DNA from: Clostridia bacterium
GTDB lineage: Bacteria > Bacillota > Clostridia > CAKSNL01 > HGM11501
DNA length: 64,000 nucleotides
Direction of reading: 5' to 3'
Assembly (NCBI GenBank): GCA_045545475.1
Contig: JAZQAZ010000019.1
Span: 1-64,000, forward strand
In this document: positions 1,237 to 48,214 of the stretch, piece by piece
How positions within the stretch are numbered: the first letter of the stretch is position 1
How the letters are laid out: every line of letters starts with the position of its first letter
Notes under the pieces: model-generated
What the model was told of the DNA's origin: nothing
The model's database searches: none
What the model saw: the letters and a program-made list of their open reading frames with translations, nothing else
Made by a program: the position numbers and the translations under genes

Positions 1237-3909
1237 ATGAAATTTGCTAAAAGTTTTTTGGGAATTCTTCTGGCACTCACATTAATTCCCTGCACGGCGA
1301 TTGCAGCAGATAAAACTTACAGCGTTGAAGAATCTGTATCGCTTGGTAAAAACGTTGCTATTCGAGATGGGAGTGCTGTTTTCGGAATTGAAGAGAGTTT
1401 TATGGTAATTAAAGGCGTAAACATGACCGGTATAAATTCCATTACCGTAGAAGCTCTTTGCGATAAAGTTGGCGGAAACGGAGACCTTATTCTTGTAAGA
1501 CTTGACAGCGAAAAGGGAAAGTGTATCGGAAGAATAGATCTTAATGTGGGAACAGATTTTTCTCAGTTTACAGGTGCTATAGAAAAGACCGAAGGAATTC
1601 ACGATGTGTACTTACAGAGCCTTCTTTCTGCAAATTCCACAAAGATTAAATCGATAACATTTTGTGAAGATGAATATAAGTATAACTATGAGCCTGTTTC
1701 TGCGGACAAGATAATTGATAAGCACGAGACTACCTGGGCTATTACTGATTCCCTTGGCAGAAAAATGGCAGACTACGAAGAAGTCGGCACGCTTAAAGAC
1801 GGTAAAGATGTAGGCATTTTTTATTGGACGTGGCATAAGCTTTCTGGAGAGGCTACCCCTGTTAACAATACGGAGTTTATGAAAAGCCATCCCGATGCAA
1901 AGTATGATTACAATCACCCTTCCTGGCCGAAAGGTAAGGTGGTACACTACTGGAATGAACCTCTCTTTGGTTATTATACCGCTGAAGACTATTGGGTTAT
2001 GAGAAAACATGCCGTTATGCTTGGGAATGCCGGTGTTGATGTTATGTTTTTTGACTGCACAAATGGAAAGGCAACTTTCAGGGCATCATCTGAGGTGCTT
2101 TTTAAAGCACTGCGGGATGCAATGAACGATGGTAATAGGGTTCCAAAAATCGGCTATGTAAGTAATTTTGCATCAACTAATCCCGATGCAAAGTATAATA
2201 TTCTGTCCACATATTTTGGTGCTTATTATAACGGGAAATATTCAGACCTCTGGTATTATCTGGATGGAAAACCGTTAATAATAGCTCATCCGGATCAGCT
2301 TAAGGCAGAGGGAGACGAGGAACTTTCTGCAATCATGGAGGAAGTGAAAAACTTCTTTACGTTCCGACTTCCACAGCCTGACCATACAGAAAAAATTACT
2401 AAGGACAACGAATGGGGTTGGCTCAGAACATACGGAAATACATTTTCCAAGGAACGAGCAGACGGAAGTTTTGAGGCGGCAAATGTCGGTGTCGCTGTAA
2501 ACAGATCTTACGAAACCGGGAAAATTGATGCCATGAATACTCCCTACGTTATGGGAAGAGGATATATGGAAACCTTGGGAGACGATCATTCGGCAGATGC
2601 CCACAAGTATGGCTATTTCTTCAGGGAACAGCTTTCTGCAGCTTTATCAAATGATGTTGATATTATGCTTGTAACAGGATGGAATGAATGGACAGTTGTT
2701 CGTCATATCGAATGGAACACAACTAAAAATGCATTCCCGGATCAGTACGATGATAAGGCGAGTCGTGATATGGAACCTACAAAGGGCGAGCTTAAAGATA
2801 TATATTACTGTCTTTTAATTGATGCTGTAAGGCGTTTTAAGGGGGCTGAGCCATTAAAGGCGGCGAGTGCAGAAGCGACAATTGATATAAATGACCTTAG
2901 TGCATGGAATTGTATAACTGATGAGTATTTCGGCGACAGAGGTACTTATGAAAGAAACAGCGTTGGTCTTGGAAATACAGTATACAAAAACAGTTCAATG
3001 AGAAATAACCCTGTTTATATGAAAGTTGCAAGAGATTCTTCATTTATGTACTTTATGGCAGAGACGGAAAACGCACTTAAGGGCGAAGGCGACGAGGGAT
3101 TTATGAACCTTTACATAAACTCCGACAGACTTTACTATACCGGCTGGGAAGGCTATGATTATGTGCTTTCAAAGGGAAAAGCTTACAGTCTCTCAACAGA
3201 CGGAAGCAAGACGGAAAAGGGAGCATACGAATATAAGGCTATTGATAAAAACCTTGTTATAAAGATAGACAGAGCACTTCTTAATCTTTCCGGAACTCTT
3301 GATTTTGAATTCAAGTGGGTGGATAACTGTAATGCGAAGGACATTCTTGATTTCTATGTAAACGGAAATTCCGCCCCCACGGGACGCTTTAATTATGTAT
3401 ATAAAGAATTGGGTGACAATGCTCCTGCAAATGATGAGAGAGCAGCACTTAAGGGAACTGCGATTGTAAAACCGGGAAGCGCAAAAATGCTTGTTTCGGG
3501 CGGAAAATCAAATCTTTCCGAGACAAATCCTGTGCTTTTGTGTCAAGAGATAAATGGAATGGCTTACATCCCTTATGATGCACTTAATAAAATTTTAGGC
3601 TTTGGACTGACAAAGGTAAAATACGAAGCCTTCTATAATATTTTATTTGTCTACACATCGGATTCTGACGGAAAGACAGTTAAAGAATTTAATTGGGCAG
3701 GCACAATTCTTGGTACTAACGAAGTGAGAGTAAACGGTGTATTAAAGACTCTTACTAATCCGGTAATAGCCAATAACGGTACTGTTTATGTTCCGCTCAC
3801 TTTGCTTTCAGATTGCTTTGGCAAAACCATTACAAAAACTGAAGGCGGACTTTATGTGATAAACGGAGACGGTACTTTGGCGGACAAATATTCCGTATAT
3901 TTTAACTGA
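1237..3909 (+). CDS. Secreted GH99/GH71-like glycoside hydrolase, module 1 enzyme (CBM6-like, TIM barrel, beta-sandwich, stalk domain)
   Basis: Sec signal peptide; CBM6-like N-domain (RLDSEKG...GIHDVY); GIFYWTW, WNEPLFGYY, AGVDVMFFD and TGWNEW...SRDMEP motifs; C-terminal Cu-amine-oxidase N-terminal-like region (NGTVYVPL). Confidence 0.75.
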   Translation: MKFAKSFLGILLALTLIPCTAIAADKTYSVEESVSLGKNVAIRDGSAVFGIEESFMVIKGVNMTGINSITVEALCDKVGGNGDLILVRLDSEKGKCIGRIDLNVGTDFSQFTGAIEKTEGIHDVYLQSLLSANSTKIKSITFCEDEYKYNYEPVSADKIIDKHETTWAITDSLGRKMADYEEVGTLKDGKDVGIFYWTWHKLSGEATPVNNTEFMKSHPDAKYDYNHPSWPKGKVVHYWNEPLFGYYTAEDYWVMRKHAVMLGNAGVDVMFFDCTNGKATFRASSEVLFKALRDAMNDGNRVPKIGYVSNFASTNPDAKYNILSTYFGAYYNGKYSDLWYYLDGKPLIIAHPDQLKAEGDEELSAIMEEVKNFFTFRLPQPDHTEKITKDNEWGWLRTYGNTFSKERADGSFEAANVGVAVNRSYETGKIDAMNTPYVMGRGYMETLGDDHSADAHKYGYFFREQLSAALSNDVDIMLVTGWNEWTVVRHIEWNTTKNAFPDQYDDKASRDMEPTKGELKDIYYCLLIDAVRRFKGAEPLKAASAEATIDINDLSAWNCITDEYFGDRGTYERNSVGLGNTVYKNSSMRNNPVYMKVARDSSFMYFMAETENALKGEGDEGFMNLYINSDRLYYTGWEGYDYVLSKGKAYSLSTDGSKTEKGAYEYKAIDKNLVIKIDRALLNLSGTLDFEFKWVDNCNAKDILDFYVNGNSAPTGRFNYVYKELGDNAPANDERAALKGTAIVKPGSAKMLVSGGKSNLSETNPVLLCQEINGMAYIPYDALNKILGFGLTKVKYEAFYNILFVYTSDSDGKTVKEFNWAGTILGTNEVRVNGVLKTLTNPVIANNGTVYVPLTLLSDCFGKTITKTEGGLYVINGDGTLADKYSVYFN

Positions 3910-3923: not shown

Positions 3924-6338
3924 ATGAAAAAGATATTTTCTTTAATATTGGCGTTTGCTTTAGCTGTGACATCACTCGTTTTTGCTTCTGCGGATGAACA
4001 AATTGTAATAGAAAGAAGCTCTTCGTGGAAAATTTCTGCAAGTACGGAAATGAATGCGGCGTTTTCCGTTGAAAAGGCTTTTGACGGAAACGATGCTACG
4101 CTCTGGCACTCTCTTTATACCGTAGTTGACGGGGGAGCAGTACCATCTGAAATTCCAAGTTCGATAACAGTTGATTTCGGAAAAGAAGAAACGGTTTCCG
4201 GCTTCACTTATGTGAGAAGAAAAGACAATCCTTCGGGACTTTTTACAAGCTTTGAAGTATTTGCGTCAAGCGACGGAGCAAACTTTACATCCATTTATAC
4301 AGGCACCTTTGATTTCGGTTCCGACAGAAGCGATATGAGCGACAAAACCGCATCCTGGGGCAACAGAAAAATGCGTGCAATAAGAATTCTCTTTACCGGA
4401 AGAGGTGTTGCAACAGCGGCTGAAATCAAGTTTCTCCGTGAGGGAAAAGCGGATAGTAACGTCAAGGAAGAAACAACAACCATTCCTTCGAGCGGAGAAA
4501 CAAAAATCCTTGAAAAGACTTCCGACTGGAAGATTTCTGCAAGTACTGAAATGAATGCAAATCTTTCTGCAGAAAAAGCCTTTGACGGAAACGAAGCAAG
4601 CATATGGCACTCCCTTTATACCGTAGTTGACGGGGGAGCTGTACCGTCCGAAATTCCAAGTTCGATAACAGTTGATTTCGGAAAAGAAGAAACGGTTTCC
4701 GGCTTCACTTATGTGAGAAGAAAAGACAATCCTTCGGGACTTTTTACAAGCTTTGAAGTATTTGCATCAAGCGACGGAGCAAACTTTACATCTATCTATA
4801 CAGGCACCTTTGATTTCGGTTCCGACAGAAGCGATATGAGCGACAAAACCGCATCCTGGGGCAACAGAAAAATGCGTGCAATAAGAATTCTCTTTACCGG
4901 AAGAGGCGTTGCAACAGCGGCTGAAATTAAGTTCATTACTAACAGTGCAGCAATTGAACAGGTACTGCCTGAAGTAAAAAAGGCATCAAACGGAGCATCG
5001 TTACTTGAAAGAAGCACGTGGACTATTACGGCAGATTCCGAAATAAAAAGTGTGCCGATAACCAATGTGCTTGACGGTGATAAAAACACTTTCTGGCATT
5101 CTTTCTACACAGCGACGGGCGGAAGCGTAACAAGTAAGGATGAACCTCCCTTTACAATTGAAATTGACTTAAAGAAAAAGGAAAAAATTTCGGGTATCAT
5201 CTTTACTCCCAGAGACAGCAAAGCGGGTATTATTACGAAGTTCGACCTTTATGCATCCGCTGACGGCGGAGAATACAAAAAGCTTCTTGAGGATAGGGTG
5301 CTTCTTGATAATACCGACGAAAAGGAAGTGCTTTTCAAAAATAACGTAGAGGCAGATAAATTAAAAATTGTTGTTACAGAAGGTACATCAAAGTACGGAA
5401 CCCTTGCTGAGCTTAATGTGGCAGGTGAAAACAAAAACGCACCGACAATAAGCTTTGAAGAGTTCTTCTCGGAGGACAGCTTAGAGCGAATGGTTCCTAT
5501 TGATAAAACCGATATTACAGTTAATTGTGAAGCACCCTTCTGGGCAAGCTTTAAGCCCGGCAATATAATTGACGGAAACACCAATACCTTCTGGCAGACA
5601 GAAGCGGGAAGTGACTTTGTTTTAAGCGTTGATTTTAACAGGGTTGAGAAGTTCGGAGAAATTGAATATATTCCGAGAAACAGCGAAGACTATCACGGCT
5701 TCTGGCTTGATTTTGATATAGCCGTAAGTGTGGACGGAGAAAATTGGGAAACCGTGATAGAGAATTATACCCTTGAAAAAAATCTCGGCGTAAACAAGAT
5801 TAGCCTTGATAAAGAAGTTGAAGCAAGATACGTTGAAATTTTATTTAACGAAACCGTTGAAAGAAGAGTTTCATGTGCAGAGCTTACTTTCTATCAGACT
5901 GTCGCAGCAAAGAAGCAGATGGCTGAGAGAAATAAGGAAAGCTATACTTTAACAATAGGCAGTAACGTAATAGAAGTTTACAAAAACGGTGAAAGCTATA
6001 ATAAAGAGCTTGACGTTGCACCTTATATCGTAAACGGCTCCACACTTATTCCTTTAAGAGGACTCATGGAGGAGATGGGAGCAACAGTCGATTGGGTAGG
6101 TCACAACCAGATGATTTACATAGATAACGGGGTTTATTATATTGAAATGCAGATTTGGAACAAAATCGTTTATGTTGAAAGTCAGAGCTTCGGAAGAGTA
6201 CGGTATGCACTTCTTAATTTCCCGGTTATCAAGGATTCGAGAACCTTTATTCCGGTAAGATTCGTATCCGAACAGCTTGGCTATGATGTTACATGGGTGG
6301 CAGAAGAACAAAAGATTATAATTACAAAAGCAGCGTGA
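3924..6338 (+). CDS. Secreted protein with four F5/8 type C (discoidin/CBM32-like) domains and a stalk domain, module 1 binder
   Basis: Signal peptide; four AFDG/LDG...WHS/WQT...R...AE repeats; C-terminal APYIVNGSTLIPLR...SRTFIPVRFVSEQLGYDVTW stalk motif. Confidence 0.88.
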   Translation: MKKIFSLILAFALAVTSLVFASADEQIVIERSSSWKISASTEMNAAFSVEKAFDGNDATLWHSLYTVVDGGAVPSEIPSSITVDFGKEETVSGFTYVRRKDNPSGLFTSFEVFASSDGANFTSIYTGTFDFGSDRSDMSDKTASWGNRKMRAIRILFTGRGVATAAEIKFLREGKADSNVKEETTTIPSSGETKILEKTSDWKISASTEMNANLSAEKAFDGNEASIWHSLYTVVDGGAVPSEIPSSITVDFGKEETVSGFTYVRRKDNPSGLFTSFEVFASSDGANFTSIYTGTFDFGSDRSDMSDKTASWGNRKMRAIRILFTGRGVATAAEIKFITNSAAIEQVLPEVKKASNGASLLERSTWTITADSEIKSVPITNVLDGDKNTFWHSFYTATGGSVTSKDEPPFTIEIDLKKKEKISGIIFTPRDSKAGIITKFDLYASADGGEYKKLLEDRVLLDNTDEKEVLFKNNVEADKLKIVVTEGTSKYGTLAELNVAGENKNAPTISFEEFFSEDSLERMVPIDKTDITVNCEAPFWASFKPGNIIDGNTNTFWQTEAGSDFVLSVDFNRVEKFGEIEYIPRNSEDYHGFWLDFDIAVSVDGENWETVIENYTLEKNLGVNKISLDKEVEARYVEILFNETVERRVSCAELTFYQTVAAKKQMAERNKESYTLTIGSNVIEVYKNGESYNKELDVAPYIVNGSTLIPLRGLMEEMGATVDWVGHNQMIYIDNGVYYIEMQIWNKIVYVESQSFGRVRYALLNFPVIKDSRTFIPVRFVSEQLGYDVTWVAEEQKIIITKAA
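4026..4933 (+). repeat. Near-identical intragenic tandem duplication of an F5/8C domain
   Basis: About 4026-4432 is repeated at about 4527-4933 (offset 501 bp), nearly base-identical over most of its length. Confidence 0.95.
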
Positions 6339-6351: not shown

Positions 6352-7800
6352 ATGACAAAACCTTTATATAAAAAGAAAAGCTATTGTAACCCCTTGTCAC
6401 TTCCCGAGCTTCCACTCGGGGATAACTACGGTGCGGACCCGCTAAAGTATACAGGAGAGCCTTATCTTGACTTCAGATCAATATCAGACCCCAGCGTACT
6501 TTACTATGATAACAAATGGTTTCTATATCCCAGTTACGGAATGTGCTATGTGTCTGAGGACTTTACAAACTTTAAGCACGTTCGTACGGAGCCTTACAAT
6601 ATCGGTTATTCTCCGTCGGTTATACCTCACAGAGATAAGTTTTTACTTACAGCACATTCAAACGGTCTTTTTATTGGTGATAGCCCTACGGGTCCTTTCA
6701 CTTATGTTGACGATTTTATCAAGGTAGACGGAAGCAAAATTCGTCCCATTGATTCGGCACTTTTCCGAGACGATGACGGAAAAATCTATATCTACTGGTT
6801 TGAGCAGACTATTCCGGATGAGCGTGGACGCTTTATTGCAAGAACAATGGGTGTCGAGCTTGACGGAGATGACCCTAGAAAGTTTAAGACGGAGCCGGTT
6901 TTGATTCATCAGTTTAATCCCAACCACTACTGGGAGAGAGGCGGAGCATATAATCAGAACTATGAAAGCGGCTGGGTTGAAGGTCAGTGGATGATGAAGC
7001 ACAACGGAAGATATTATATGATATATTCTTCTTCCGGCACGGAGTTTCCTAACTATTCCATGGCGGCATACTATTCTGACGAAGGTCCTTTAACCGGCTT
7101 TAAGTGTCAGAAGCACAATCCCATCTGCCGTCACGACCACGGAATTGTAAGCGGTGCAGGACACGGCTGTATTGAACACGGCCCCGACAACACCCTTTGG
7201 GCGTTTTATACGATAACGGCTCCGGCACTTCATCCCTTCGAGAGAAGAATCGGTATGGATCAGGTGTTTGTTGACGAAAACGGTGAGCTTTACTGTAACG
7301 TTACGGATACTCCTCAGCTTGGCTACGGCGAGACGCCTGGAAACAACGATGCGGGACTTCTTCCCGTAAATGCAAGACTGAGGCACAGAGTGAGAGCTTC
7401 AAGCTATGCAAGCGGAAGAAACGGATTTTACGCCATGGACGAAAGCATGCTAACCTGGTGGCAACCTGAAGAAAACGATGACGAGCCATGTCTTTATATG
7501 GATCTTACTGCAGACTATACCTGTGAGGCTATAAGAATAGTATGGCGAGATATAAATATGAATGTAAAAAACGGAATAGTTCCAGGCCCCTATAAGTATG
7601 TTGTGGAACAGCGTCTCATGGTAGGCTCGGGAGAATGGGAGACTGTTCTTGATATGAGCAAAAATGCCGAAGACAGAAACATTGATTATAAGACTTTCCC
7701 ACCAATTTTATGCCGTGAGGTACGCCTTCGTATTACAGAATGGCCCGCTGGAATCACTCCGGGTGTTGTAAGCTTTACGCTTTTCGGAAAGATGAAATAA
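6352..7800 (+). CDS. GH43-family glycoside hydrolase with C-terminal F5/8C domain
   Basis: Five-bladed propeller motifs SDPSV, IDSALFRDDDGKIY, WVEGQW, GAGHG; C-terminal discoidin-like domain; no signal peptide. Confidence 0.85.
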   Translation: MTKPLYKKKSYCNPLSLPELPLGDNYGADPLKYTGEPYLDFRSISDPSVLYYDNKWFLYPSYGMCYVSEDFTNFKHVRTEPYNIGYSPSVIPHRDKFLLTAHSNGLFIGDSPTGPFTYVDDFIKVDGSKIRPIDSALFRDDDGKIYIYWFEQTIPDERGRFIARTMGVELDGDDPRKFKTEPVLIHQFNPNHYWERGGAYNQNYESGWVEGQWMMKHNGRYYMIYSSSGTEFPNYSMAAYYSDEGPLTGFKCQKHNPICRHDHGIVSGAGHGCIEHGPDNTLWAFYTITAPALHPFERRIGMDQVFVDENGELYCNVTDTPQLGYGETPGNNDAGLLPVNARLRHRVRASSYASGRNGFYAMDESMLTWWQPEENDDEPCLYMDLTADYTCEAIRIVWRDINMNVKNGIVPGPYKYVVEQRLMVGSGEWETVLDMSKNAEDRNIDYKTFPPILCREVRLRITEWPAGITPGVVSFTLFGKMK

Positions 7801-7809
7801 GAGGTGGCT

Positions 7810-10014
7810 ATGTTAAAAGATGCAAAATGGATAAAGGCACCTTGCGATATTGATGACGGATGCTTTATATTCAAACGGGAGTTCCCCTTTGATAAAAAAG
7901 TTGAAAAAGCAATTCTTCATGTAACGGCTCTGGGACTTTACAGGGCATACTTAAACGGAAAAGAGCTTAACTTAAGTCTTTTCACTCCGGGATTTACTTC
8001 ATATGATAAAAGAGTTCAGTATCAGGAATACGATGTGACGGAGATAATCGGTCAAAATAACAGTCTTTTAATTGAAGCGGCCGAGGGCTGGGCTGTTGGT
8101 AATATGACGATTCTTCCCGGCAAAAAGCACCGTTATTCGGATCACATCAAGGTGATTTTTTCCCTTGAAGTAACATTTTCCGACGGAAGCAGTGAAGCTA
8201 TAAACTCAGACAGTGAAACTACGGTTACAACAAGTAATGTTATATCTTCATCCATTTATGACGGAGAAAATGTTGATATGACAGCCGAAATAAAGTCTCT
8301 CGGTAATGCTTTAATAACTGAGTATGAAACGAAGCTTGTCCCTGATGAGGGAGAAAGAGTTTCGGAGCACGAAGTATTTTATCCTACAGAGCTTATAATA
8401 ACGCCTAAAGGTGAAAGGGTAATTGACTTCGGTCAAAACCTTGCAGGCTATGTTGAAATTTCCGTTTCCGGGAAAAAGGGAGAGTGCATAACCTTAAGTC
8501 ATGCGGAAATACTTGATTCCGAGGGAAACTTTTACACCGATAATTTAAGAAGTGCAAAGGCCGTAAATACTTATGTGCTGTCGGGCGACGGCAAGGAAGT
8601 GTTTAAGCCTAAATATTCCTGGCAGGGGTTTAGATATATAAGACTTGACGAATATCCATTTGATACGGTGGATTTATCTTGCTTTAAGGCTATTGCGGTT
8701 TATTCTGACATAAGAAGAATTTCTGATTTTTCCTGCGGTAATGAAAAAATCAATCAGCTTTACAGAAATATAATTTGGGGACAGAAGGGGAACTTTCTTG
8801 ACATTCCTACGGATTGTCCGCAGAGAGATGAGCGAATGGGCTGGACGGGAGATGCACAGATTTTCGTCCGTACTGCAGCTATAAATTTCGATGTTGAAAA
8901 GTTTTTCACAAAGTGGCTTTCAGACCTTGCTGAAAATCAATATGAAGACGGTTCGGTTCCGCTTTTTGTGCCCGATTGCAGGTTGGCATTTCCGAAGGAA
9001 AAGGTTTCCTCGGCCTGGGGAGATGCGGCAACAATTTGCCCCTGGGAAATTTATATGGCATACGGCAATAAGGAAATCCTTGAAAGGCAGTTTGACTCTA
9101 TGAAAAAATGGGTGGACTACATAACAAAGGCAACAGAGAAAGAATTTTTATGGTTCGGCGGAAAGCAGATGGGCGATTGGCTTGCTCTTGATACAGAGGA
9201 GTCTAGAAAAAGTAATAATCCCGTTTCCGGAAGAACTCCACGTGAGTTTATTGCATCGGCTTTTTATGCTAAAAGCACTGAAATTTTAGTTAACTCGGGA
9301 AAAATTCTGGGAAAAGATATGTCGGAGTATGAAGTTTTATACAAAAACATAGTTAAAGCCTTTAAGGAAACCTTTATAAAGGACGGATTCCCCGTTGAGG
9401 ATACTCAGACAGCCTATGCTATGGTACTTTACTTCAATCTCTGCGATGATAAGAAAAAGGTAGCAGACGAGCTTTCAAGAATGGTCAGAGCTAACGGGAA
9501 CCGCCTTACAACCGGCTTTGTGGGAACGCCTTATCTTCTTCACGCACTATCTGAAAACGGTGAGGCAGAAACGGCTTACGACCTTCTTTTTCAGGAAGGT
9601 TTTCCGTCCTGGCTCTATTCTGTAAACAGAGGTGCGACAACTATGTGGGAACACTGGGACGGAGTGAAGGAAGACGGAAGCTTTTGGGACAAGGTTATGA
9701 ATTCATATAACCATTACGCCTATGGTGCGGTGGGAGACTGGATATTCGGTGCATCAGCAGGAATCAGGTGCCTTCCTGACGGAGCGGGCTATAAGCATAT
9801 AGAAATAAAACCGTATACAGATAAGCGCATGGGATACGTTAAATATACCATGGAAACCCGTAACGGCAAGCTTTCAAGTCATTGGTATTACGGGTGCGAA
9901 GGCGAAATTCATTTCGACTTTGAAATTCCCGAAAATTCAACGGCAGAGATAATTTTGCCTGACGGAAGAAGTTATAGTGTTAAGGGCGGAAAATACAGCT
10001 TCATATGCAAATAA
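7810..10014 (+). CDS. GH78 alpha-L-rhamnosidase
   Basis: DFGQNLAG, IPTDCPQRDERMGWTGD, GATTMWEHW and SYNHYAYG motifs; no signal peptide. Alternative GTG start at 7804. Confidence 0.93.
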   Translation: MLKDAKWIKAPCDIDDGCFIFKREFPFDKKVEKAILHVTALGLYRAYLNGKELNLSLFTPGFTSYDKRVQYQEYDVTEIIGQNNSLLIEAAEGWAVGNMTILPGKKHRYSDHIKVIFSLEVTFSDGSSEAINSDSETTVTTSNVISSSIYDGENVDMTAEIKSLGNALITEYETKLVPDEGERVSEHEVFYPTELIITPKGERVIDFGQNLAGYVEISVSGKKGECITLSHAEILDSEGNFYTDNLRSAKAVNTYVLSGDGKEVFKPKYSWQGFRYIRLDEYPFDTVDLSCFKAIAVYSDIRRISDFSCGNEKINQLYRNIIWGQKGNFLDIPTDCPQRDERMGWTGDAQIFVRTAAINFDVEKFFTKWLSDLAENQYEDGSVPLFVPDCRLAFPKEKVSSAWGDAATICPWEIYMAYGNKEILERQFDSMKKWVDYITKATEKEFLWFGGKQMGDWLALDTEESRKSNNPVSGRTPREFIASAFYAKSTEILVNSGKILGKDMSEYEVLYKNIVKAFKETFIKDGFPVEDTQTAYAMVLYFNLCDDKKKVADELSRMVRANGNRLTTGFVGTPYLLHALSENGEAETAYDLLFQEGFPSWLYSVNRGATTMWEHWDGVKEDGSFWDKVMNSYNHYAYGAVGDWIFGASAGIRCLPDGAGYKHIEIKPYTDKRMGYVKYTMETRNGKLSSHWYYGCEGEIHFDFEIPENSTAEIILPDGRSYSVKGGKYSFICK

Positions 10015-10074
10015 CGGTTGCGGAATTTTTAAAAGTGTGATATACTGATAAAAAATAACGAAAGGTGATATATT

Positions 10075-10647
10075 ATGAAAAAAGTTAAAGATAAAGAAAT
10101 ATTAGTCGGAGCAGACTTTGCCGGTTTTCCGCTTAAAGAAGCGGTTTGCGAGCATTTAAGATCAAAGGGATGGAAAATTACCGATGTCGGCGTTAAGGTT
10201 GATTCCGATCCCGACGATACGGACTTAATGTTCCACAGGGTAGGTCTTCGTGCCGGTGCCATGATTTCTGAAGGCGAATTTGAAAGAGCTCTTCTTTTCT
10301 GCGGAACAGGTATGGGTATCCATATCGCTGCAAGCAAGTGTCCTCACGTTCACGCAGGCGTTGTTGAAAGCGTTCCTGCAGCACTTCGTGCAATCACCGG
10401 TAACGGCGTAAACGTGCTTGCCATGGGTGCTTTCTATGTTGCTCCTGCTATGGGATGCGATATTGCAGATGCATATCTAAATGCAGAGCTTGGATCAGGC
10501 TATGAATGGTGGAAGAATTTCTATGAATTCCACAAGCTTGCAATTGACGAGCTTGAAGCCTTTGACTATGAAGAATATAAAAAGAACGGTTTCAAGGTAA
10601 ACAAGCTTGGTGATTTCCCCTTAAAGCTTGAAAAGAAACCTGAATAA
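10075..10647 (+). CDS. RpiB/LacA/LacB-family sugar-phosphate isomerase
   Basis: GADFAGFPLKE and CGTGMG...IAASK...NVLAMG family motifs. Confidence 0.88.
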   Translation: MKKVKDKEILVGADFAGFPLKEAVCEHLRSKGWKITDVGVKVDSDPDDTDLMFHRVGLRAGAMISEGEFERALLFCGTGMGIHIAASKCPHVHAGVVESVPAALRAITGNGVNVLAMGAFYVAPAMGCDIADAYLNAELGSGYEWWKNFYEFHKLAIDELEAFDYEEYKKNGFKVNKLGDFPLKLEKKPE

Positions 10648-10651
10648 TCGT

Positions 10652-10680: not shown

Positions 10681-10703
10681 CTATTCTTTCGAAATCAAAA
10701 GTG

Positions 10704-20809: not shown

Positions 20810-20822
20810 GGGGGAACTAAGA

Positions 20823-40468: not shown

Positions 40469-40475
40469 GATAATA

Positions 40476-40505
40476 AAACGCTGGATTTTAAAAATCCGGC
40501 GTTTA
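40476..40505 (+). terminator. Probable terminator hairpin
   Basis: AAACGCTGGATTTT-A-AAAATCCGGCGTTT inverted repeat after the GH43 stop. Confidence 0.6.
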
Positions 40506-40624
40506 TGCATTAAAGCATTTTTCATTCATGCACAAAATCATCCGATTTTTCCGGTTTTTCAAAAAATACTTGAAAAACGGTGAGAATGTGATAAGATTAA
40601 ACTATCACAAAGTGAGGTGTTTGC

Positions 40625-42955
40625 ATGAGAGAAACATTGCTTTTTAACGACAATTGGCGTTTTCATGAAGGGGATATTGACACATCAATACCCAACAAAA
40701 AAGGACCGTTATACATAAGCTCCAAAACCGAGAGAGCAAAGTGGGGACCTGCTTCTCTTTACTACAGAGATATGCCGGATGACTATTCTATGACAGCGGA
40801 GCTTAACAACCGTGATGCGTGGGATAGTGTAACGCTTCCCCATGACTATGTTATACTTCATACTCCAAAAGAAAACGAAAATAATACGCTTGGGTATCTT
40901 CCGTATAACAACGCCTGGTACAGAAAGCATTTTACATTATCCGAAGATGAGAGAGGTAAAAGGTTCGTTTTGCATTTTGACGGTGTGGCAACCAATGCAA
41001 CTGTTTATTTCAACGGAAGCTTGATGAAGCATAACTTCTGCGGATACACGCCATTTGATGTTGATATAACCGACTATATCCGTTTTGGACAGGATAATGT
41101 TGTTGCAGTTTATGTGAATACCGAAAATCATGAGGGTTGGTGGTATGAAGGCGGCGGCATATACAGAGACGTTTTCCTCATCAAAACTAACCGTGTTTCG
41201 GTTGATACTTACGGTGTTTATGTTCACCCTGAAAAGAAGGAAAAGAACTGGGATATAAACATCGAAACAACCATTGCCAATGAAGACTATGAAGATGCAT
41301 ATGTAAAGCTTATAAGTACCGTTAAAGATAATGATGGAAATACGGTGGCAACCGCAACAAGTGAACTTTATATCCCTACAAAAGAAGCAGCGACAGCCGT
41401 ATATAAAACGGAAATTACCAACCCCGTTTTGTGGAATCTGGATAATCCCTGTCAGTACAAGGTTATAACCGAAGTGGAAAAAGACGGGGAAACAATAGAC
41501 GTTTACGAAACAAAAACAGGATTCAGAACCTTTAGAGCAGATCCCAACGAAGGCTTTTTCCTGAACGGAAATTATGTGAAAATTAAAGGCGTTTGTGCAC
41601 ACTCTGACTGCGGTCTTACAGGTAAAGCCGTTGCTGACAATGTTAACAGGTATAAAGCAGAGCTTCTTAAGGAAATGGGAGCAAACGGCTACAGAACAAG
41701 TCATTATCCTCAAAATCCCGCCATGATGGATGCACTTGACGATCTCGGATTCATCGTTATGGCAGAAACCCGCTGGTTCGACTCTACGGATGAGGGCAAA
41801 GAGCAGCTCAAAACCCTTATTAAGCGTGACAGAAACCGTCCATCAATTTTCTTTTGGTCCATAGGAAATGAAGAACCGTTTTTTGTAACCGAACAGGGAC
41901 AAAATATAGCAAAAGCCTTGAAGCGTGAAATTAACAAACTTGACAAGACAAGACTTATAATGACTGCAGTTGACAGAACGCCGGAACAAGCGACGGTTTA
42001 TTCCGAGCTTGATGCGGTAGGTGTAAACTATAACCTTCAGTCATATGACATACTGCACGAAACATATCCCGATATACCGGTATTTTCATCTGAATGTTGC
42101 GCAACCGGCTCCACAAGAGGCTGGTATTATGACGATTGCCCCGATAAAGGATATATTTCTGCATATGACAAGGCCACTAATAACTGGTTTCTCGGCAGGG
42201 AGCAGACCTGGAAGTTTATGTGCGAGCGTAAATGGCTTCTCGGTAGTTTTCAGTGGGCAGGCTTTGAACACAGAGGAGAAACAGTATGGCCACGTCTTTG
42301 CTCGCAGTCGGGAGCGATTGACTTGTTCCTTCAGAAAAAGGATGCTTTCTATCAGAATCAGTCCCATTGGCTCGAAAATCCCATGATACACATGATTCCT
42401 CACTGGAACCTTAAAACCGCTTTCCCTGGTGAAGATATAAAGGTGTGGGCATACACAAACTGTGAAGAAGCCGAGCTTATATTAAACGGAAAAAGCTATG
42501 GAAAAGTTTCTGTTGAAAAATATGGCCATGCCCAGTGGTTTGTTCCTTATGAAGAGGGTACAATCGAAGTTATCGGATATATCGGTGGCAGGGAGGTTTG
42601 CCGTGACGGTCACGAAACCACAAAAGCTCCCGCTAAATTAAAGCTTCGTCTCGAAAACAAGGTTACAGGCTCAGGCAGAGATGTGGCTATTTTGACTTGT
42701 TACACGGAGGATGAAGACGGACTCTTTGTTCCCGATGCATCACCGTTTGTTGAATTCCATACAAATGCCAAAGGAAATATCATCGGAACAGGAAGTGATA
42801 TTTCCGACCACAATCCCGTTACGGAAAAGAACCGTAAAATGAGAGAAGGCCTTATCTCGGTTGCAGTAGCTGTAAAGGGCGGAGCAGGTAAACTTTCTGT
42901 CTATGCAAAAGCAGAAGGACTTATTCCTGCAAGACTTGACATCGAAATTGATTAA
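40625..42955 (+). CDS. GH2 beta-galactosidase-like glycoside hydrolase
   Basis: FDGV, WWYEGGGIYR, MGANGYRTSHYP, RDRNRPSIFFWSIGNEE and SSECC motifs. Confidence 0.92.
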   Translation: MRETLLFNDNWRFHEGDIDTSIPNKKGPLYISSKTERAKWGPASLYYRDMPDDYSMTAELNNRDAWDSVTLPHDYVILHTPKENENNTLGYLPYNNAWYRKHFTLSEDERGKRFVLHFDGVATNATVYFNGSLMKHNFCGYTPFDVDITDYIRFGQDNVVAVYVNTENHEGWWYEGGGIYRDVFLIKTNRVSVDTYGVYVHPEKKEKNWDINIETTIANEDYEDAYVKLISTVKDNDGNTVATATSELYIPTKEAATAVYKTEITNPVLWNLDNPCQYKVITEVEKDGETIDVYETKTGFRTFRADPNEGFFLNGNYVKIKGVCAHSDCGLTGKAVADNVNRYKAELLKEMGANGYRTSHYPQNPAMMDALDDLGFIVMAETRWFDSTDEGKEQLKTLIKRDRNRPSIFFWSIGNEEPFFVTEQGQNIAKALKREINKLDKTRLIMTAVDRTPEQATVYSELDAVGVNYNLQSYDILHETYPDIPVFSSECCATGSTRGWYYDDCPDKGYISAYDKATNNWFLGREQTWKFMCERKWLLGSFQWAGFEHRGETVWPRLCSQSGAIDLFLQKKDAFYQNQSHWLENPMIHMIPHWNLKTAFPGEDIKVWAYTNCEEAELILNGKSYGKVSVEKYGHAQWFVPYEEGTIEVIGYIGGREVCRDGHETTKAPAKLKLRLENKVTGSGRDVAILTCYTEDEDGLFVPDASPFVEFHTNAKGNIIGTGSDISDHNPVTEKNRKMREGLISVAVAVKGGAGKLSVYAKAEGLIPARLDIEID

Positions 42956-43102: not shown

Positions 43103-45862
43103 ATGAAAAAAATTGTATCAACCTTGCTCATTATATCTATGCTGGCATCCTTTTCTTTAGCAATTTCTGCGGAAACAGAAAAGGAATTAGATATACTTAA
43201 GCCTGACTTTAAAAATAATATTATGGTTTATGAAGATTGCATCAGATACAATACTAAAGACAGCTATTTCGGATTTAAGGCAGTTGACCTCACCGGAATA
43301 AAATCCATTGGAATCAGGGTGCTCAATACGTTTATAAGAGGCGCCGGAGAAAACGGAGATACTCTTGTTGTTAAGGCGGATGATCCGTTAAAAGGCGATG
43401 TGCTCGGATATATAGTTATGGCAGAAGCGGGAGAGCACATTTTCAAAACATCAATCTTTGAAACGGAGGGCGTTCACGATTTATACTTTGTTTCGCTTTA
43501 CGGAGAAAACAGAGGAAATTCCAATATATATGAAATAAACTTATATAAAGATGAGTATGTTCAGGACAAATCCGCCTGTGTACCGGACTCATATATTAAA
43601 GACCTTTATTCGGATACCTGGGCAGCAACAGATTCCTACGGAAGAAAGGTGGCAGACTATTGTGAAACCGGGGCTGTTAAAACCGACGGACGTGAAGTGG
43701 GAATTATGTACTGGAACTGGTTTGTTGCAGATACTGCTAAATACCGCGGAAGGGTTATTTCAGACGTATTAAAGGAACACCCCGAAGCAAGAGACGATTA
43801 TTACCACGAAGCCTGGGGGAAGAACAATAAATATTTCTGGACAGAGCCGGTGCTGGGATTTTACGATTCCTATGACTACTGGGTATACCGTAAACACGCC
43901 GAAATGCTTGCAGTTGCAGGCGTCGATGTGATATTTACCGACTGTACAAATGCGGGATATACATATACCGAGCCTCTTACAATTCTTGCAAAAGCTTTTC
44001 GTGATGCGAAAAGGACGGGAATTGATGTTCCGAAAATTTCGGTTATAGGCTCCCTTGGCCGCGGTAAATATGCATTTACCCAGCCTATGGCGATATATAT
44101 GAATTTCTTTGTGGGAAACGATTATTCCGATATATGGTATTACCGCGACGGAAAGCCTATGATTTTTTCTACGGTATATAAAGCGGATACAAAGAAATAT
44201 GCCAATGAAAAAGATACTGCACAGATGGATCTGGCGGAAGAAATACACGACTTTTTCACTTTCAGATATGCCGGGGCGTACAGAAACAGTAAGGTTGCTC
44301 CCAATGAATGGTTCTGGCTTGAAGAATTTCCGCAGCAGCTTCGTAATCCCGATGAAACCGGACGGCCTGAAATGGTGGCGGTGGGATGCTCTATAAACAC
44401 AACAGTCAATGCGGCAATGGGCGTGGCTACAGCTGCATCCAATCCCTGTGCAAAGGGCAGAAGCTTTTCCGAGGTATTCAACCGCGACTATTCTGCTGAC
44501 AGTGCAAGAAAGGCATATTTCTTCCGTGAGCAGGCAGCGCTTGCTTTAGCGGCTGATCCTGAGTTTGTATTTATTAACGGATGGAACGAGCTTTCGGCAG
44601 AACGAAAGAGCGAATGGTACGGGCAGACCAACACCTTTGTAGATACCTTTGATGACGAAAACAGCCGTGATTTCGAGCCGTCAAGAGGTGCTCTGAAGGA
44701 TGATTATTATATGCTCCTTTGCGATTTTGTAAGAAAATTCAAGGGTGTTCGCCCTGCACCTGTTGCAAGCGGAATGAAAGCTATAGATATTAACGGTGAG
44801 CTTTCACAGTGGAGCGAAGTGGGTCCTGAATTTTTAAATACAAATCAGGATTACGAAAGAGATTCTGTGGGCTATGCAAAAGCGGGTACTGATTTTGAAC
44901 CGAATATCTATAAAACAACTGTAAACAATGCTGTAAAGAGTGCAAAGGTGTCTTTTGACAATGAAAATTTCTATTTCCTTGTATCCTGTGAAAAGGACAT
45001 AAAGGAACACGACAAAAGCTTTCTTAATCTCTATATAAACACAGACAGGATGTATAATACCGGGTGGGAAGGTTATGACTATGCCTTTAATGTATCCGGA
45101 AAAGGTGTAATTTCAAAAAATGCAGGAAATGTATGGTGTTGGGAAAGTATCGGTAATGCAGAATACAGGATAACCGGAAATTCTATGATGGTTTCCTTTC
45201 CGAGAAGCTTTATCGGAGAGACGGAAAAGGTAGATTTTGAATTTAAATGGACAGATTCTGTTTCAGCGGAAGACGACTTTATGAATTTCTATTCTGACGG
45301 CTCGGTTGCACCCTATGGTCGCTTTAATTATCTCTATACAGAAAAAGAGCAGACAGCACTTACGGATTATGAAAGAATGATGCTGTCGGATACGGCAATT
45401 ATAAAAGCCGGTGCTGAAAATATGATAGTTGCAGGCGGAAAAATGCCGGTTTACGAAAAGAACAGAAATGTACGTGCTTTTTCACAGAACGGAACACTTT
45501 ATATCCCTGAAGATACATTGTGCGAAGTGCTGGGCTACGGCAGAACAAAAACAGACTATAATTCATTCTACAATGTTTCTAGAACCTATCATTACGAGAT
45601 GAACGACGAACTGACAGAAGTAATTAATTATAAGTGGACATATACAACCCTCGGCACTAATGAAGCGAGAGTGGACGGAAAGCTTACCGGGCTTTCAAAC
45701 CCCGTTATCTCAAGGGACGGAATTGTATTCATTCCCTTAAGCTTTATTGAAGAATGCTACGGATATGAAGTGAAGGCAATAGGAGAGGACGTTTATACCG
45801 TATGCACAAGGGGAACAGCACCGATTGATACGGTTATGAGTGTTTTGCATCACTTTGATTGA
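43103..45862 (+). CDS. Secreted GH99/GH71-like enzyme, module 5
   Basis: Start moved from 42974 to the ATG at 43103 behind AGGAGG; signal peptide; GIMYWNW, NGWNEL and SRDFEP motifs; stalk. Confidence 0.75.
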   Translation: MKKIVSTLLIISMLASFSLAISAETEKELDILKPDFKNNIMVYEDCIRYNTKDSYFGFKAVDLTGIKSIGIRVLNTFIRGAGENGDTLVVKADDPLKGDVLGYIVMAEAGEHIFKTSIFETEGVHDLYFVSLYGENRGNSNIYEINLYKDEYVQDKSACVPDSYIKDLYSDTWAATDSYGRKVADYCETGAVKTDGREVGIMYWNWFVADTAKYRGRVISDVLKEHPEARDDYYHEAWGKNNKYFWTEPVLGFYDSYDYWVYRKHAEMLAVAGVDVIFTDCTNAGYTYTEPLTILAKAFRDAKRTGIDVPKISVIGSLGRGKYAFTQPMAIYMNFFVGNDYSDIWYYRDGKPMIFSTVYKADTKKYANEKDTAQMDLAEEIHDFFTFRYAGAYRNSKVAPNEWFWLEEFPQQLRNPDETGRPEMVAVGCSINTTVNAAMGVATAASNPCAKGRSFSEVFNRDYSADSARKAYFFREQAALALAADPEFVFINGWNELSAERKSEWYGQTNTFVDTFDDENSRDFEPSRGALKDDYYMLLCDFVRKFKGVRPAPVASGMKAIDINGELSQWSEVGPEFLNTNQDYERDSVGYAKAGTDFEPNIYKTTVNNAVKSAKVSFDNENFYFLVSCEKDIKEHDKSFLNLYINTDRMYNTGWEGYDYAFNVSGKGVISKNAGNVWCWESIGNAEYRITGNSMMVSFPRSFIGETEKVDFEFKWTDSVSAEDDFMNFYSDGSVAPYGRFNYLYTEKEQTALTDYERMMLSDTAIIKAGAENMIVAGGKMPVYEKNRNVRAFSQNGTLYIPEDTLCEVLGYGRTKTDYNSFYNVSRTYHYEMNDELTEVINYKWTYTTLGTNEARVDGKLTGLSNPVISRDGIVFIPLSFIEECYGYEVKAIGEDVYTVCTRGTAPIDTVMSVLHHFD

Positions 45863-45898: not shown

Positions 45899-48214
45899 TT
45901 GAAAAAGAGACTTTTTAGCTTAATATCAGCACTGTTTATTGTTACAGGAAGTGTTTTTGCGGCAGCCAATGATGTTGACTTTGTCAAAGTCGAAGGCAGC
46001 GGAGGATCTGTCGGATATTATTCTGATTTACAGGAAGCTTTTAATTCTGTTTCAGAGGGGGATACGGTTACTTTACTTAAGGACTATACCTTTAATTATA
46101 CAGGAAAAAGCATAACAGGAATTGATTTTCCTGAAGTGAAGTTCACATTTGACGGCGGGGGATTTACAATAACTGACGCCTTTGACAGAAAGCTGCACGG
46201 AAATCATGACGACAGAGGATCGTATAAAATCTCCGGCGGTGATGTAACCGTAAAAAACGTAACCTTCAGAATGGATAACGCCATCACATCGGAGGATCAG
46301 GGGCATACAAACGGATGCTTTCTTGTTACAAACGGAACAGTCCGGCTTAATAATGTAACCATCACACATTATTACGGACATAACGGAAGTGCCTTCTGGG
46401 GACAGGGCAACGGAAAAATAATCATAGAGGATAAAGTGACCGTTTCCGATTGTCACGCCAAAACGCGCGGAATTATCGGCCTTTACTTTCTCGATGCTGA
46501 AATTAACGGACTTACCGTAGATGGCGGAACGGGTGATGCGATAGTTGCAGGACCTGTAGGAGCAAAGGTAGAGCTTAAGCTTTCGGACACATCCATAAGC
46601 GGTGTTACAGGAAGCGGAATTGTGGCAGGCGGAACAAAAAGTGAAGAAAAGACGACAGTTGTTAACATCAGTGGAGGTATAAAAATAACAAATTGTGAAG
46701 GCAGCGGAATACATATTAATCCCGGAGCACAGGTAAAGGTGAGAGGGGAAGCCGATTTATCCGGAAACAAAGGTGGGAATATAAAGATAACCGGAAGCGG
46801 TATTTTAGACGCCGATCCTCCGATTATTGCAGAGGGTGAAAAAATTGTTGCCGGTGAAATTTCAAAAGCAGGGTGGACTGTTTCTGCAACCTCTGAATTT
46901 GTTAAAAATCCCGCTAAATATCTTATTGATAATGATACAAAAACCTTCTGGCATTCAAAGTATGATGAGATTGACGGAAAAGCGAAAAATATTGAGCCTG
47001 CACCGTACACTTTGGATTTTATACTTCCTGAAGTTACGGATATTTCCGGCTTCGCCCTCCTTTCAAGAAAGGATTCAAATTCAGGAGACCTTAAAAGCTA
47101 TGATATTTTGGTATCGGATTCCGATGACGGAGAATTTTATGCTGTAGCTAAAGATATTACGGTTCCATCGTATATGTATGAAGCAAAAGGATATACAAAG
47201 GTTATAAACCTTGTTGCAAATGTAAATGCAAAAAGAATAAGGCTTTATATAAAAGAGGGCTCGGTTGCGGCATTTGCGGAATTTTCCGTAATAAAAGGAG
47301 ATGATGGGAAAGAAACGATGACTCCTGCGTCATACCTTGAGTATGCATCGCAGAACACTCCGCAGCTGATTCCTTCCGATAAGTTTAAGGTTTCGTGTGA
47401 AGAAGAAGCCTGGATGCAATTTACAATAGTAAAGGCGTTTGACGGAACAAATCAGTCAATGTGGCAGACGGAGGCTGTAGGCAGTCGTCCGGTTAAAATC
47501 TGCATAGATCTCGGAGAGGTTTACGAAATCGAAGAAATACATTATTTACCAAGACTTACAGAGGATAAACACGGACTCTGGCTTAAAGCAAATATATCTT
47601 ATTCAACAGATAAAACCGTATATGAGAAAATTGAAAATTACACTTTCAAAGAGAATCTTGACGAGAAAATCATAAGCTTTGGCGAAGGGTGCAAAATGCG
47701 CTATGTCGAGATAGAAGTAACCGAATATGTTGCAAACAGAGTATCGGCATCGGAAATCAGCTTCTATGAAACAGGAAAAGGACATCGCGAAAGAATAGAA
47801 GAGAATAAAACCACTTATACACTTACCATAGGCTCAGATGTAATAAAAATAGCAAAAGGTAAAAACAATGAAATTTCGGAAAAGAAAATAGATGTTGCAC
47901 CTTATATTGTAAACGGTTCCACATTTATTCCTTTAAGAGGACTTCTTGAGGAAATGGGTGCGGAAATCTCCTGGGATGGAGAAAGACAGCTTATTACCGT
48001 AAAAAACAATGCACTCACCATTGAGCTTCAGATATGGAATAACACGGTTTGGGTAACAAATTCAAAGGTTGACGGCAGAATGATGTATTCTGTTCCGAAT
48101 CCGCCCGTAATAAGTGACAACCGTACTTTTGTGCCGGTAAGATTTCTTTCGGAGATTCTTGGGTATACCGTTTCCTGGGACGGTACTGCGCAGACTGTCA
48201 CCATAAAAAATTAA
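45899..48214 (+). CDS. Secreted protein with beta-helix-like N-domain, two F5/8C domains and stalk, module 5 binder
   Basis: TTG start; signal peptide; YSDLQEAF...GDTVTLLKD followed by Gly/Asn/Ile-rich beta-helix-like repeats; two discoidin domains; stalk motif. Confidence 0.8.
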   Translation: MKKRLFSLISALFIVTGSVFAAANDVDFVKVEGSGGSVGYYSDLQEAFNSVSEGDTVTLLKDYTFNYTGKSITGIDFPEVKFTFDGGGFTITDAFDRKLHGNHDDRGSYKISGGDVTVKNVTFRMDNAITSEDQGHTNGCFLVTNGTVRLNNVTITHYYGHNGSAFWGQGNGKIIIEDKVTVSDCHAKTRGIIGLYFLDAEINGLTVDGGTGDAIVAGPVGAKVELKLSDTSISGVTGSGIVAGGTKSEEKTTVVNISGGIKITNCEGSGIHINPGAQVKVRGEADLSGNKGGNIKITGSGILDADPPIIAEGEKIVAGEISKAGWTVSATSEFVKNPAKYLIDNDTKTFWHSKYDEIDGKAKNIEPAPYTLDFILPEVTDISGFALLSRKDSNSGDLKSYDILVSDSDDGEFYAVAKDITVPSYMYEAKGYTKVINLVANVNAKRIRLYIKEGSVAAFAEFSVIKGDDGKETMTPASYLEYASQNTPQLIPSDKFKVSCEEEAWMQFTIVKAFDGTNQSMWQTEAVGSRPVKICIDLGEVYEIEEIHYLPRLTEDKHGLWLKANISYSTDKTVYEKIENYTFKENLDEKIISFGEGCKMRYVEIEVTEYVANRVSASEISFYETGKGHRERIEENKTTYTLTIGSDVIKIAKGKNNEISEKKIDVAPYIVNGSTFIPLRGLLEEMGAEISWDGERQLITVKNNALTIELQIWNNTVWVTNSKVDGRMMYSVPNPPVISDNRTFVPVRFLSEILGYTVSWDGTAQTVTIKN

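Follow-up and report, generated by a model that had tools for sequence, protein, structure and literature searches.

Among the described systems closest to the one reported here are the anchoring scaffoldins OlpC (C. thermocellum) and ScaG (A. cellulolyticus, C. clariflavum), non-catalytic proteins which carry a wall-binding module like PF07833 and dock an enzyme at the cell surface (PMC4582956 and PMC3413522, in the parts of these papers drawn on here). In OlpC a domain of this kind is reported to bind secondary cell wall polymers (same part of PMC4582956, citing Pinheiro et al.). Further comparisons are offered by the Sus-like polysaccharide utilisation loci (PULs) of the Bacteroidota, with SusC/SusD, surface glycan-binding proteins (SGBPs) and a surface endo-glycoside hydrolase (GH), and by the Gram-positive PULs (gpPULs) of Roseburia, E. 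rectale and Blautia. Here we consider a stretch of 64,000 nucleotides from a Clostridia bacterium (assembly GCA_045545475.1, contig JAZQAZ010000019.1, positions 1 to 64,000 of the forward strand; hereafter the window), in which five two-gene cassettes each encode a secreted enzyme-type protein (E) followed by a secreted binder-type partner (B), both with a stalk domain of the PF07833 kind. The source genome, G000 (2.74 Mb, 95% complete), belongs to a gut Clostridia lineage. The E–B pair is probably an undescribed surface display pair, built of known domains around a new glycosidase-like family; indeed, no description of the pair or of the E family was found in the literature searched, which lay mostly outside subscription journals and CAZy.

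The reading that we favour, and hold with fair confidence, is that B anchors to the wall, binds a glycan and tethers a cognate E of a new family. Each cassette would thus encode a cell-surface heterodimer. B would be a non-catalytic adaptor whose canonical stalk may bind a cell-wall polymer, by analogy with OlpC, and whose two to five CBM32 domains would bind the glycan, while a B-specific insert on the other face of the stalk is predicted to dock the E from the same operon. The E stalk, having lost the canonical residues, would be the docking partner, such that the E barrel could cut the captured glycan beside the cell. The products may then enter through a few shared importers and may be finished by cytoplasmic exo-glycosidases under local AraC control, and the lineage would widen its substrate range by copying the pair, from 4 to more than 40 per genome, without added ABC importers. 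Architecture, pairing, expansion, residue asymmetry and co-divergence were computed from sequence and the complex was predicted; wall binding, catalysis, substrate and uptake route are inferred only.

The near-constant adjacency of the two genes is the first element of this reading. A first-pass annotation of the window had listed five cassettes, ten open reading frames (ORFs) in the order E then B with gaps of 11–36 bp, and all of these were recovered at the coordinates in Table 1, with gaps of 14, 12, 11, 13 and 36 bp in modules 1 to 5. In G000 as a whole there are 42 full-length E paralogues (mutual identity 31–82%), and the cassettes make up 8.2% of its DNA. The next gene directly 3′ of E encodes a secreted F5/8C protein in 41 of the 42 cassettes, a 274-aa isomerase-like gene lying between E and B in the 42nd, and the E–B gap is 9–18 bp in 39 of them. 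This pattern is far beyond chance. All 84 E and B proteins of G000 have a hydrophobic N-terminus, one of them with a borderline later hydrophobic stretch.

Among relatives, 90 E-like ORFs were counted, with 72 loci taken from genome contigs; after dropping seven that run off the 3′ end and two N-terminal halves of split genes, and setting aside four with no downstream ORF in view, an F5/8C protein follows E in 75 of 77, the other two being followed by an ORF cut short at the contig end. In 73 metagenome loci, 12 of the 14 stalk-bearing E have a B and the remaining two have no downstream DNA, whereas none of the 75 stalk-less E homologues has a downstream B. Likewise, no B stands beside any of the eight stalk-less homologues in genome G027. 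The pairing, which the first-pass annotation had called obligate, is in other words near-obligate in G000 and its relatives, and the neighbourhood survey supports the view that it tracks the presence of the E stalk. Three points pull the other way. In the sister-genus genome G012 (14 regions fetched, 29 matches) B lies beside only one of nine E-like ORFs, some of which have weak stalks; since the stalk-less control comes mostly from distant taxa, lineage and stalk are confounded; and because close relatives are set against remote taxa, these tallies do not amount to independent tests.

E is present in all 13 genomes of its family and in 1 of 27 other families sampled, and 13 of 14 family genomes have B-core matches, from 4 to 44 apiece, the exception being G012 with none at a threshold of E 1e-40. 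Where E was listed in full, the E/B counts per genome are 4/4, 17/17, 9/9, 12/12, 3/4, 12/10, 12/10 and 17/12. Relatives that carry a name are for the most part Clostridia or Bacillota assembled from metagenomes, several of them titled as gut samples. That the system had diversified by cassette duplication, as first proposed, is borne out by the 42 copies, although these are mostly scattered and not in tandem: just 6 of 42 have another E paralogue within 20 kb, and tandem duplication was rejected as the main copying route. Several E genes have one internal stop or are split (G004, G005; L056, L066), which fits cassette turnover, and some E proteins carry an N-terminally fused F5/8C domain (P0105, P0111, P0125; L105:3014-6676), the one seen in context still preceding a minimal B. 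Two genomes of the same genus, G007 and G009, have few cassettes (4 and 9) yet 7 and 5 GH10-like genes, an alternative expansion. A reverse transcriptase gene lies ~6 kb from a cassette (L019:725-1681). Contig ends C16 and C35 of G000, possible halves of one B gene, gave no overlap. From the RNA runs, of which small shares only of the relatives' sequence are present as contigs, one contig (run X4, ~92% alike) spans the E3–B3 junction, without proving a single transcript or expression.

The E protein comprises a signal peptide, a CBM6, a barrel of GH99/GH71 fold, a second domain and the degenerate PF07833 stalk. In the model of E3 (predicted local distance difference test, pLDDT, 93.5; predicted template modelling score, pTM, 0.92) residues 26–150 match the CBM6 2v4v (Z 17.3, root-mean-square deviation, rmsd, 1.7, 117 aligned), with a profile match to 1gmm (E 1.5e-5); Pfam scores for this domain fall just below the cut-off, with a sub-threshold match in two window copies, and fold and sequence both identify the E N-terminus as CBM6. 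The barrel (168–545) is nearest to the GH99 structure 4acy_A (Z 19.4, rmsd 4.9, 271 aligned) and then to GH71 (Z 15.5), and human MANEA takes the top row among 48,161 chains (Z 18.2), such that the model predicts for E the (beta/alpha)8 barrel of GH99. Where GH71 has a beta-sandwich packed C-terminally on the barrel, residues 546–742 of E3 are mostly beta strands, for which matches below 0.9 to Glucodextran_C and CBM9-like clusters in the ESM Atlas are leads only. The stalk (794–882) matches E. coli amine oxidase (Z 11.4, rmsd 1.6, 74 aligned). No name for the barrel came from Pfam, NCBIfam or PDB sequence searches, the ESM Atlas gave only unnamed clusters, and a literature search on PDB entry 5NGW returned nothing relevant.

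Sequence motifs separate this barrel from its structural neighbours. The catalytic dyad is EWHE (ExxE) in GH99 and DYGE (DxxE) in GH71, according to the parts of PMC13421300 and PMC12394665 consulted. At the GH99 position, only one of the 106 stalk-bearing E, and none of 109 distant homologues (128 collected, 19 of them outside the pattern), has an acidic residue at +3, and this counts against a hydrolytic role; as for the GH71 dyad, WNE is invariant in 106 of 106 but no Glu follows at +3. Six residues, E490, D509, R517, D518, D279 and N282, are nevertheless invariant in all 106 stalk-bearing E, and D509, the Asp after an inserted hairpin, is also invariant in all 109 scored distant homologues. 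Because the dyad is absent and another Asp is invariant, E is a member of neither GH99 nor GH71, and as it has invariant acids of its own it is probably an unclassified glycosidase-like family outside both, with E490 together with D509 or D518 as candidate catalytic acids. The label GH99/GH71-like first given to E thus holds for the fold, though not for any Pfam or NCBIfam model or for the dyad; similarly, the description of E as a hydrolase agrees with its fold and invariant acids, but not with membership of GH99 or GH71 by motif, and hydrolysis itself stays conditional.

The barrel family is large (1,598 clusters at 50% identity). Among 44 proteins scanned, its members carry dockerin, SLH, CBM6 or GDSL domains, and its stalk-less homologues adjoin SusC/SusD in 11 of 44 locus clusters. 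This domain company and locus context are like those of secreted glycosidases, in line with which E may be active. They also bear on the best surviving alternative, which we consider unlikely, that E is a non-catalytic oligosaccharide binder on a GH99-like barrel and that E and B form a pure capture pair like SusD and an SGBP, handing glycan to shared importers. Such a role would account for the missing ExxE/DxxE dyad and for the loops around the barrel, which vary between paralogues, and with only five sugar-type solute-binding protein matches (PF01547) in G000 another binder could fill that place. It sits less well with the invariance of the six residues and of D509, with a family that carries dockerin, SLH and CBM6 as enzymes do, and with homologues that follow SusC/SusD in Bacteroidota, where SusD is already present. 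The stalk-less homologues often occur as tandem pairs of two diverged subtypes, several by SusC/SusD or rhamnosidase genes (L139, L148, L152, L160, L168, L175, L181, L182).

Turning to the partner, B consists of a signal peptide, two to five CBM32-type domains and a canonical stalk, the smallest B being two F5/8C domains and a stalk. PF00754 is above cut-off in 42 of 42 G000 B proteins and PF07833 is C-terminal in 40, with one degenerate stalk that is internal and one B truncated where its contig stops. In the model of the B core (pLDDT 93.0, pTM 0.69) the domains seem less rigidly placed relative to each other. Of the two core F5/8C domains, F58a matches the NanJ-type CBM32 (2V72, galactose complex; E 2.8e-23) and F58b matches ZmpB CBM32-1/-2 (7JNF, GalNAc complex; E 8e-24), the F58b subtype being confined to the B genes of 41 cassettes and a single fragment at a contig end. 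CBM32 domains bind glycans of the Gal, GalNAc or GlcNAc type; the His and Arg positions which we take to form their ligand site are kept in most F58a and extra domains, and F58b has Gln/His/Arg there instead (the pattern caught 22 of 41 F58b). In a quick tree of 132 domains caught by pattern, in which some F58a were mislabelled as extras, the N-terminal extra domains of B often have as their sister another domain from the same B, a sign of internal duplication. Also near cassettes are two giant proteins, secreted and 3070 and 2668 aa long, that combine F5/8C-like repeats with SLH domains (G000 C30:100142-109354, C37:28695-36701).

Whether E and B bind each other was addressed by complex prediction and by covariation. 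The predicted complex of E3(195–908) with B3(570–853) scored 0.79, the best of three controls scoring 0.00; of 157 solved complexes 116 come up to that mark, as do 2 of 215 mismatched pairs, although these counts are only approximate with the alignments used here. The runs share at least 93% of contacts with partner pLDDT of at least 84. The interface is predicted to be mainly stalk-on-stalk with a barrel loop contributing, and comprises E residues 814–821, 839–841 and 850–854 with barrel loops 430–433 and 454–457, facing B residues 755–756, 779–781, 795–800 and 808–820, none of these named residues belonging to F58b. In 106 E–B pairs (effective 70), the four strongest covarying pairs between the chains are all stalk–stalk (R850–E781, V819–W797, Y817–V820 and F821–W797); they were found before the model, and every one of them belongs to its contacts of lowest error. 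Over 17 stalk contacts the covariation z averages 1.78 versus −0.34 to 0.00 in eight shuffles, and contact pairs show complementary swaps (F-W, Y-R and K-E at 821/797; D-K and Y-V at 817/820). Moreover, over 40 own pairs, E stalk distances correlate best with those of the B F58b (0.50) and B stalk (0.47), with 0.37 for the barrel, and in 27 of 39 cases the closest E paralogue also has the closest B core. The earlier suggestion that the pair is assembled through its stalks is hence supported at the level of prediction, by a controlled complex model and by covariation on the same contacts.

Several considerations temper this docking. By magnitude the covariation is not significant, the top value being 5.9 against shuffled maxima of 5.5–5.8 and later 6.7 against 5.5–6.7; covariation and complex model are not independent, because the same alignments with matching row order fed both; and the co-divergence of E and B could be explained by co-duplication alone. 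The PF07833 domain of E. coli amine oxidase stands in a solved homodimer, and as like domains occur in solved homodimers the complex score may stem partly from memorised structures. The covariation maxima and the like domains in homodimers favour a second alternative, also unlikely and ranking after the capture pair, in which E and B are co-expressed, each is wall-bound or released alone, and the predicted contact arises spuriously from the homology of the stalks. Shared regulation would suffice for the gene linkage, and G000 has at least 108 PF07833 matches, many of them on single proteins. Against such a separation, E stalks have lost the canonical residues while B has gained an insert that lies in the interface, the stalk-less homologues never had a B, the contact pairs swap in complementary fashion, and the one B with an internal stalk (C18), which has lost the arginines and has other C-terminal domains, still keeps the insert.

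The stalk residues behind this argument differ between B and E. R764, R825 and R831 are each present in 40 of 41 B stalks, in 21, 19 and 22 respectively of 23 other G000 stalks, and in none of 42 E stalks, and all three lie outside the listed E–B interface. Conversely, the insert residue Y813 is found in 39 of 41 B, is a gap in 20 of 23 other stalks and in all 42 E, and the insert is within the interface. The first-pass annotation had recognised that all ten window proteins carry the stalk in two flavours, and this asymmetry is evident in the PF07833 matches of 96–108 bits for B and a weak 24–39 bits for each of the five E. It can now be refined into a probable division of labour: with the arginines kept in B and lost in E, the B insert in the interface and the report on OlpC, B would both anchor and dock, and E would only dock, the arginine face being the putative wall-binding face. 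In this regard the stalk is not as poorly defined in role as had been supposed, since the OlpC copy is reported to bind a wall polymer and a PF07833-annotated domain homodimerises in PaSOD (PMC10432803, in the part consulted). Wall binding by the B stalk is suggested by analogy, and that it leans on a single cited study is a point against it. A stalk domain is also found at the N-terminus of a PrsA-like rotamase (L018:4565-5779).

Other modes of anchoring were ruled out for E and B by scans for motifs, domains and hydrophobicity, namely lipoprotein, sortase, SLH and transmembrane. As the first-pass annotation had stated, the ten window proteins have no dockerin or SLH match in a Pfam scan and no evident wall-sorting signal; LPxTG is absent from all 84 G000 proteins, and a loose lipobox pattern occurs in one E and one B, neither convincing. 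Pfam cohesin and dockerin gave no match in the five window E or in 42 B, the 37 other G000 E aligning end to end with those of the window. An improbable alternative is that E and B do pair, yet the heterodimer is shed into the medium or rests on its substrate, the B stalk not binding the wall. SLH is available as an anchor in G000 (56 matches) yet unused by E and B, and stalk wall binding is reported for OlpC only; on the other hand, the canonical face, which B has conserved in common with stalk proteins unrelated to it, is not part of the listed interface, and stalk and SLH did not coincide in any G000 protein (coordinates compared by eye), as expected of alternative anchors.

The remaining parts of the proposal concern what happens to the captured glycan. 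An AraC gene lies within 1.5 kb of 18 of 42 cassettes (null mean 3.7, maximum 12 in 2,000 draws), G000 having 90 AraC-type matches (88 above cut-off), 9 of PF17389 and 10 of GH20. Of the 258 ORFs neighbouring cassettes, about 205 were scanned, and these include GH20, 42, 43, 78, 95, 29, 106, 2 and 3 but no SusC/SusD. ABC importers are near two cassettes (L017, L033) and a lone solute-binding gene is near another (L020), with none in the window. The whole genome has 14 ABC permease matches and no MFS_2 match, and across 12 genus genomes ABC permease matches stay at 8–14 while B copies vary between 4 and 44 (rho 0.45, p 0.14). GH78-like and GH28-like counts rise with B (rho 0.90 and 0.80), but so does genome size (0.84), which speaks against a specific link. 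A candidate shared importer is an ABC cluster with a 1019-aa solute-binding protein, Yip1, DUF5696 and four permeases (L042:9971-19487, L043:1484-3586; G000 C20). That the pair serves adhesion or antagonism against the surfaces of living neighbours, and not feeding, would suit its multivalent lectin domains, the lack of a linked importer and the tenfold copy-number variation within the genus, yet is very improbable given that linked AraC genes, cytoplasmic exo-glycosidases, isomerases and dehydrogenases point to catabolism and that distant homologues lie in utilisation loci.

As to the substrate, a rhamnosidase lies within 6 kb of 5 of 42 G000 cassettes and a GH20 within that distance of 6 of 42, so no single neighbour defines it in G000. 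Among the 44 stalk-less locus clusters, a rhamnosidase-type gene occurs in 14, GH2 in 3 and GH20/GH43 in none, with few queries per family and no background rate. L-Rhamnose is 6-deoxy-L-mannose, which makes the action of a GH99-like fold on rhamnosides plausible, and a rhamnose-rich glycan is a lead only. G000 has no GH5 above cut-off, no sulfatase, no M60 peptidase and one weak GH10, and a classical plant-fibre or mucin specialisation is not supported by these counts. Seven weak GH28-like and two BNR matches keep pectin and host glycans among the candidates. Microbial surface polysaccharides rank first, at a little short of an even chance, followed by pectic or arabinogalactan side chains as a distinctly less likely second and host glycans as an unlikely third.

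Table 1. Features of the window, with the modules first and other genes below.
Feature	Coordinates	Strand	Description
E1	1237..3909	+	890 aa; secreted; CBM6, GH99/71-fold barrel, second domain, degenerate stalk
B1	3924..6338	+	804 aa; secreted; 4 F5/8C (CBM32-type), canonical stalk
E2	12289..15048	+	919 aa; GTG start preceded by ribosome-binding site
B2	15061..17529	+	822 aa; 4 F5/8C, stalk
Terminator-like hairpin, module 2	17530..17563	.	Between B2 and convergent AraC gene
E3	21781..24519	+	Modelled copy; 912 aa; CBM6 26-150, barrel 168-545, stalk ~794-882
E3 degenerate stalk	24160..24426	+	Without canonical arginines; 814-821, 839-841, 850-854 in predicted interface
B3	24531..27104	+	857 aa; two duplicated N-terminal CBM32, core F58a, F58b, then stalk
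B3 F58b (last F5/8C domain)	26244..26696	+	Cassette-specific subtype nearest ZmpB CBM32-1/-2
B3 canonical stalk	26769..27086	+	R764, R825, R831, W776, W843 kept, outside listed interface; insert 811-814 inside
Terminator-like hairpin, module 3	27117..27146	+	Hairpin scan
E4	28629..31370	+	913 aa
B4	31384..33786	+	800 aa; 4 F5/8C, stalk
Terminator-like hairpin with T run, module 4	~33791..33820	+	Read by eye; missed by hairpin scan
E5	43103..45862	+	919 aa
B5	45899..48214	+	771 aa; N-terminal region without assigned domain, 2 F5/8C, stalk
AraC regulator	218..1057	-	Divergent from module 1
AraC regulator	17565..18326	-	After module 2
GH43, GH78 alpha-L-rhamnosidase, RpiB-type isomerase, GH20 genes	6352..12206	+	The three GHs without signal peptide
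GH20-like, FliB-like, xylose-isomerase-like TIM-barrel genes	18440..21686	+	Upstream of module 3; GH20-like without signal peptide
GH43 and GH2	39389..42955	+	Upstream of module 5; both without signal peptide

Within the window each B has two to four F5/8C stretches. Modules 2 to 4 are closed by a hairpin and T run, as first described, and hairpin scans of the window found none after modules 1 and 5. A hydrophobic N-terminus is absent from the inter-module glycosidases GH43, GH78, GH20 and GH2. Several other neighbours are worth recording, among them a complete type I restriction-modification set (hsdR, hsdM, hsdS) between modules 4 and 5 (34030-39369), a FliB-like flagellin lysine N-methylase within the glycan locus (19874-20809; 182.5 bits against an NCBIfam cut-off of 85) and a 422-aa protein between modules 3 and 4 (27264-28532) that lacks a signal peptide and matches nothing in Pfam or NCBIfam. 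After module 5 come two tandem cytoplasmic metallophosphoesterases (48328-50189) which, speculatively, might act on phosphodiester-linked glycans.

If these proposals hold, their meaning is several-fold. A large unclassified glycosidase-like family is probably defined, with candidate catalytic residues, and a Gram-positive gut lineage would scale its glycan range through copies of a surface pair and not through transporters, which departs from the gpPUL pattern. Were cognate pairs even partly insulated, 40 natural stalk pairs would offer new small docking modules for enzyme display, and were the substrate a microbial polysaccharide, a little-studied cross-feeding niche in the gut would come into view. 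A bolder and decidedly tentative extension is that E–B is a third modular surface-foraging system beside cohesin–dockerin and Sus, in which a wall-binding stalk was duplicated into a receptor–ligand pair with a cognate residue code, displaying up to 44 variants of a new GH99-superfamily endo-glycosidase, possibly an endo-rhamnanase, in an uncultured gut lineage living on the diverse surface polysaccharides of other microbes.

Set beside the individual proteins to which they are nearest, E and B each share a framework and differ in its use. E has in common with the GH99 endo-alpha-1,2-mannosidases/mannanases and the GH71 alpha-1,3-glucanases the barrel fold and a first acid in a WNE context, and with GH71 a second domain after the barrel (PMC12394665 and PMC13421300, in the parts consulted), yet it is 13–16% identical to them, is without EWHE or DYGE, carries an inserted hairpin followed by the invariant Asp and an S/T-R-D motif, and gives no Pfam match. 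The domains of B are like the CBM32 of NanJ and ZmpB but stand in a protein without a recognised catalytic domain. PaSOD from Paenibacillus lautus (8IMD) has an N-terminal domain that is PF07833-annotated and mediates protein–protein contact, as the stalks are predicted to do; on the part of PMC10432803 consulted, that domain is shorter and forms a homodimer, whereas E–B would be a heterodimer in which two full stalks, differing in type, meet and a barrel loop takes part.

At the level of whole systems, B is like OlpC and ScaG in being non-catalytic, in having a PF07833-like domain (by Pfam match) and in its putative task of holding an enzyme at the surface. OlpC and ScaG dock by cohesin–dockerin, whereas the predicted dock of E–B is a second, degenerate stalk (parts of PMC4582956 and PMC3413522), and each B, unlike them, shares its cassette with a single cognate enzyme and bears a CBM32 array of its own; the cellulosomal arrangement of cohesin on scaffold and dockerin on enzyme is not seen in the Pfam matches of B or of the window's E. 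With Sus-like PULs the cassettes share a repeated and regulated module of surface binder and surface enzyme, and distant E homologues themselves stand in Sus-like loci, but the cassettes have no TonB-dependent transporter, SusD homologue or lipoprotein anchors and their host is among the spore-forming Clostridia. The analogy with cohesin–dockerin and Sus pairing originally drawn for this locus is apt, then, for how the pair may work and fails for membership of either system. Like the gpPULs, the cassettes cluster GHs and a regulator in a Firmicute genome; gpPULs, on the part of PMC10318527 consulted, include a carbohydrate transporter and carry the carbohydrate-binding module on the enzyme, whereas sugar importers are missing from most cassette loci and binding falls to a second protein that is paired with the enzyme. 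In its working, E–B would resemble an anchoring scaffoldin that holds one enzyme, or the surface pair of Sus, yet it stands outside cellulosomes, Sus PULs, gpPULs, GH99 and GH71 alike.

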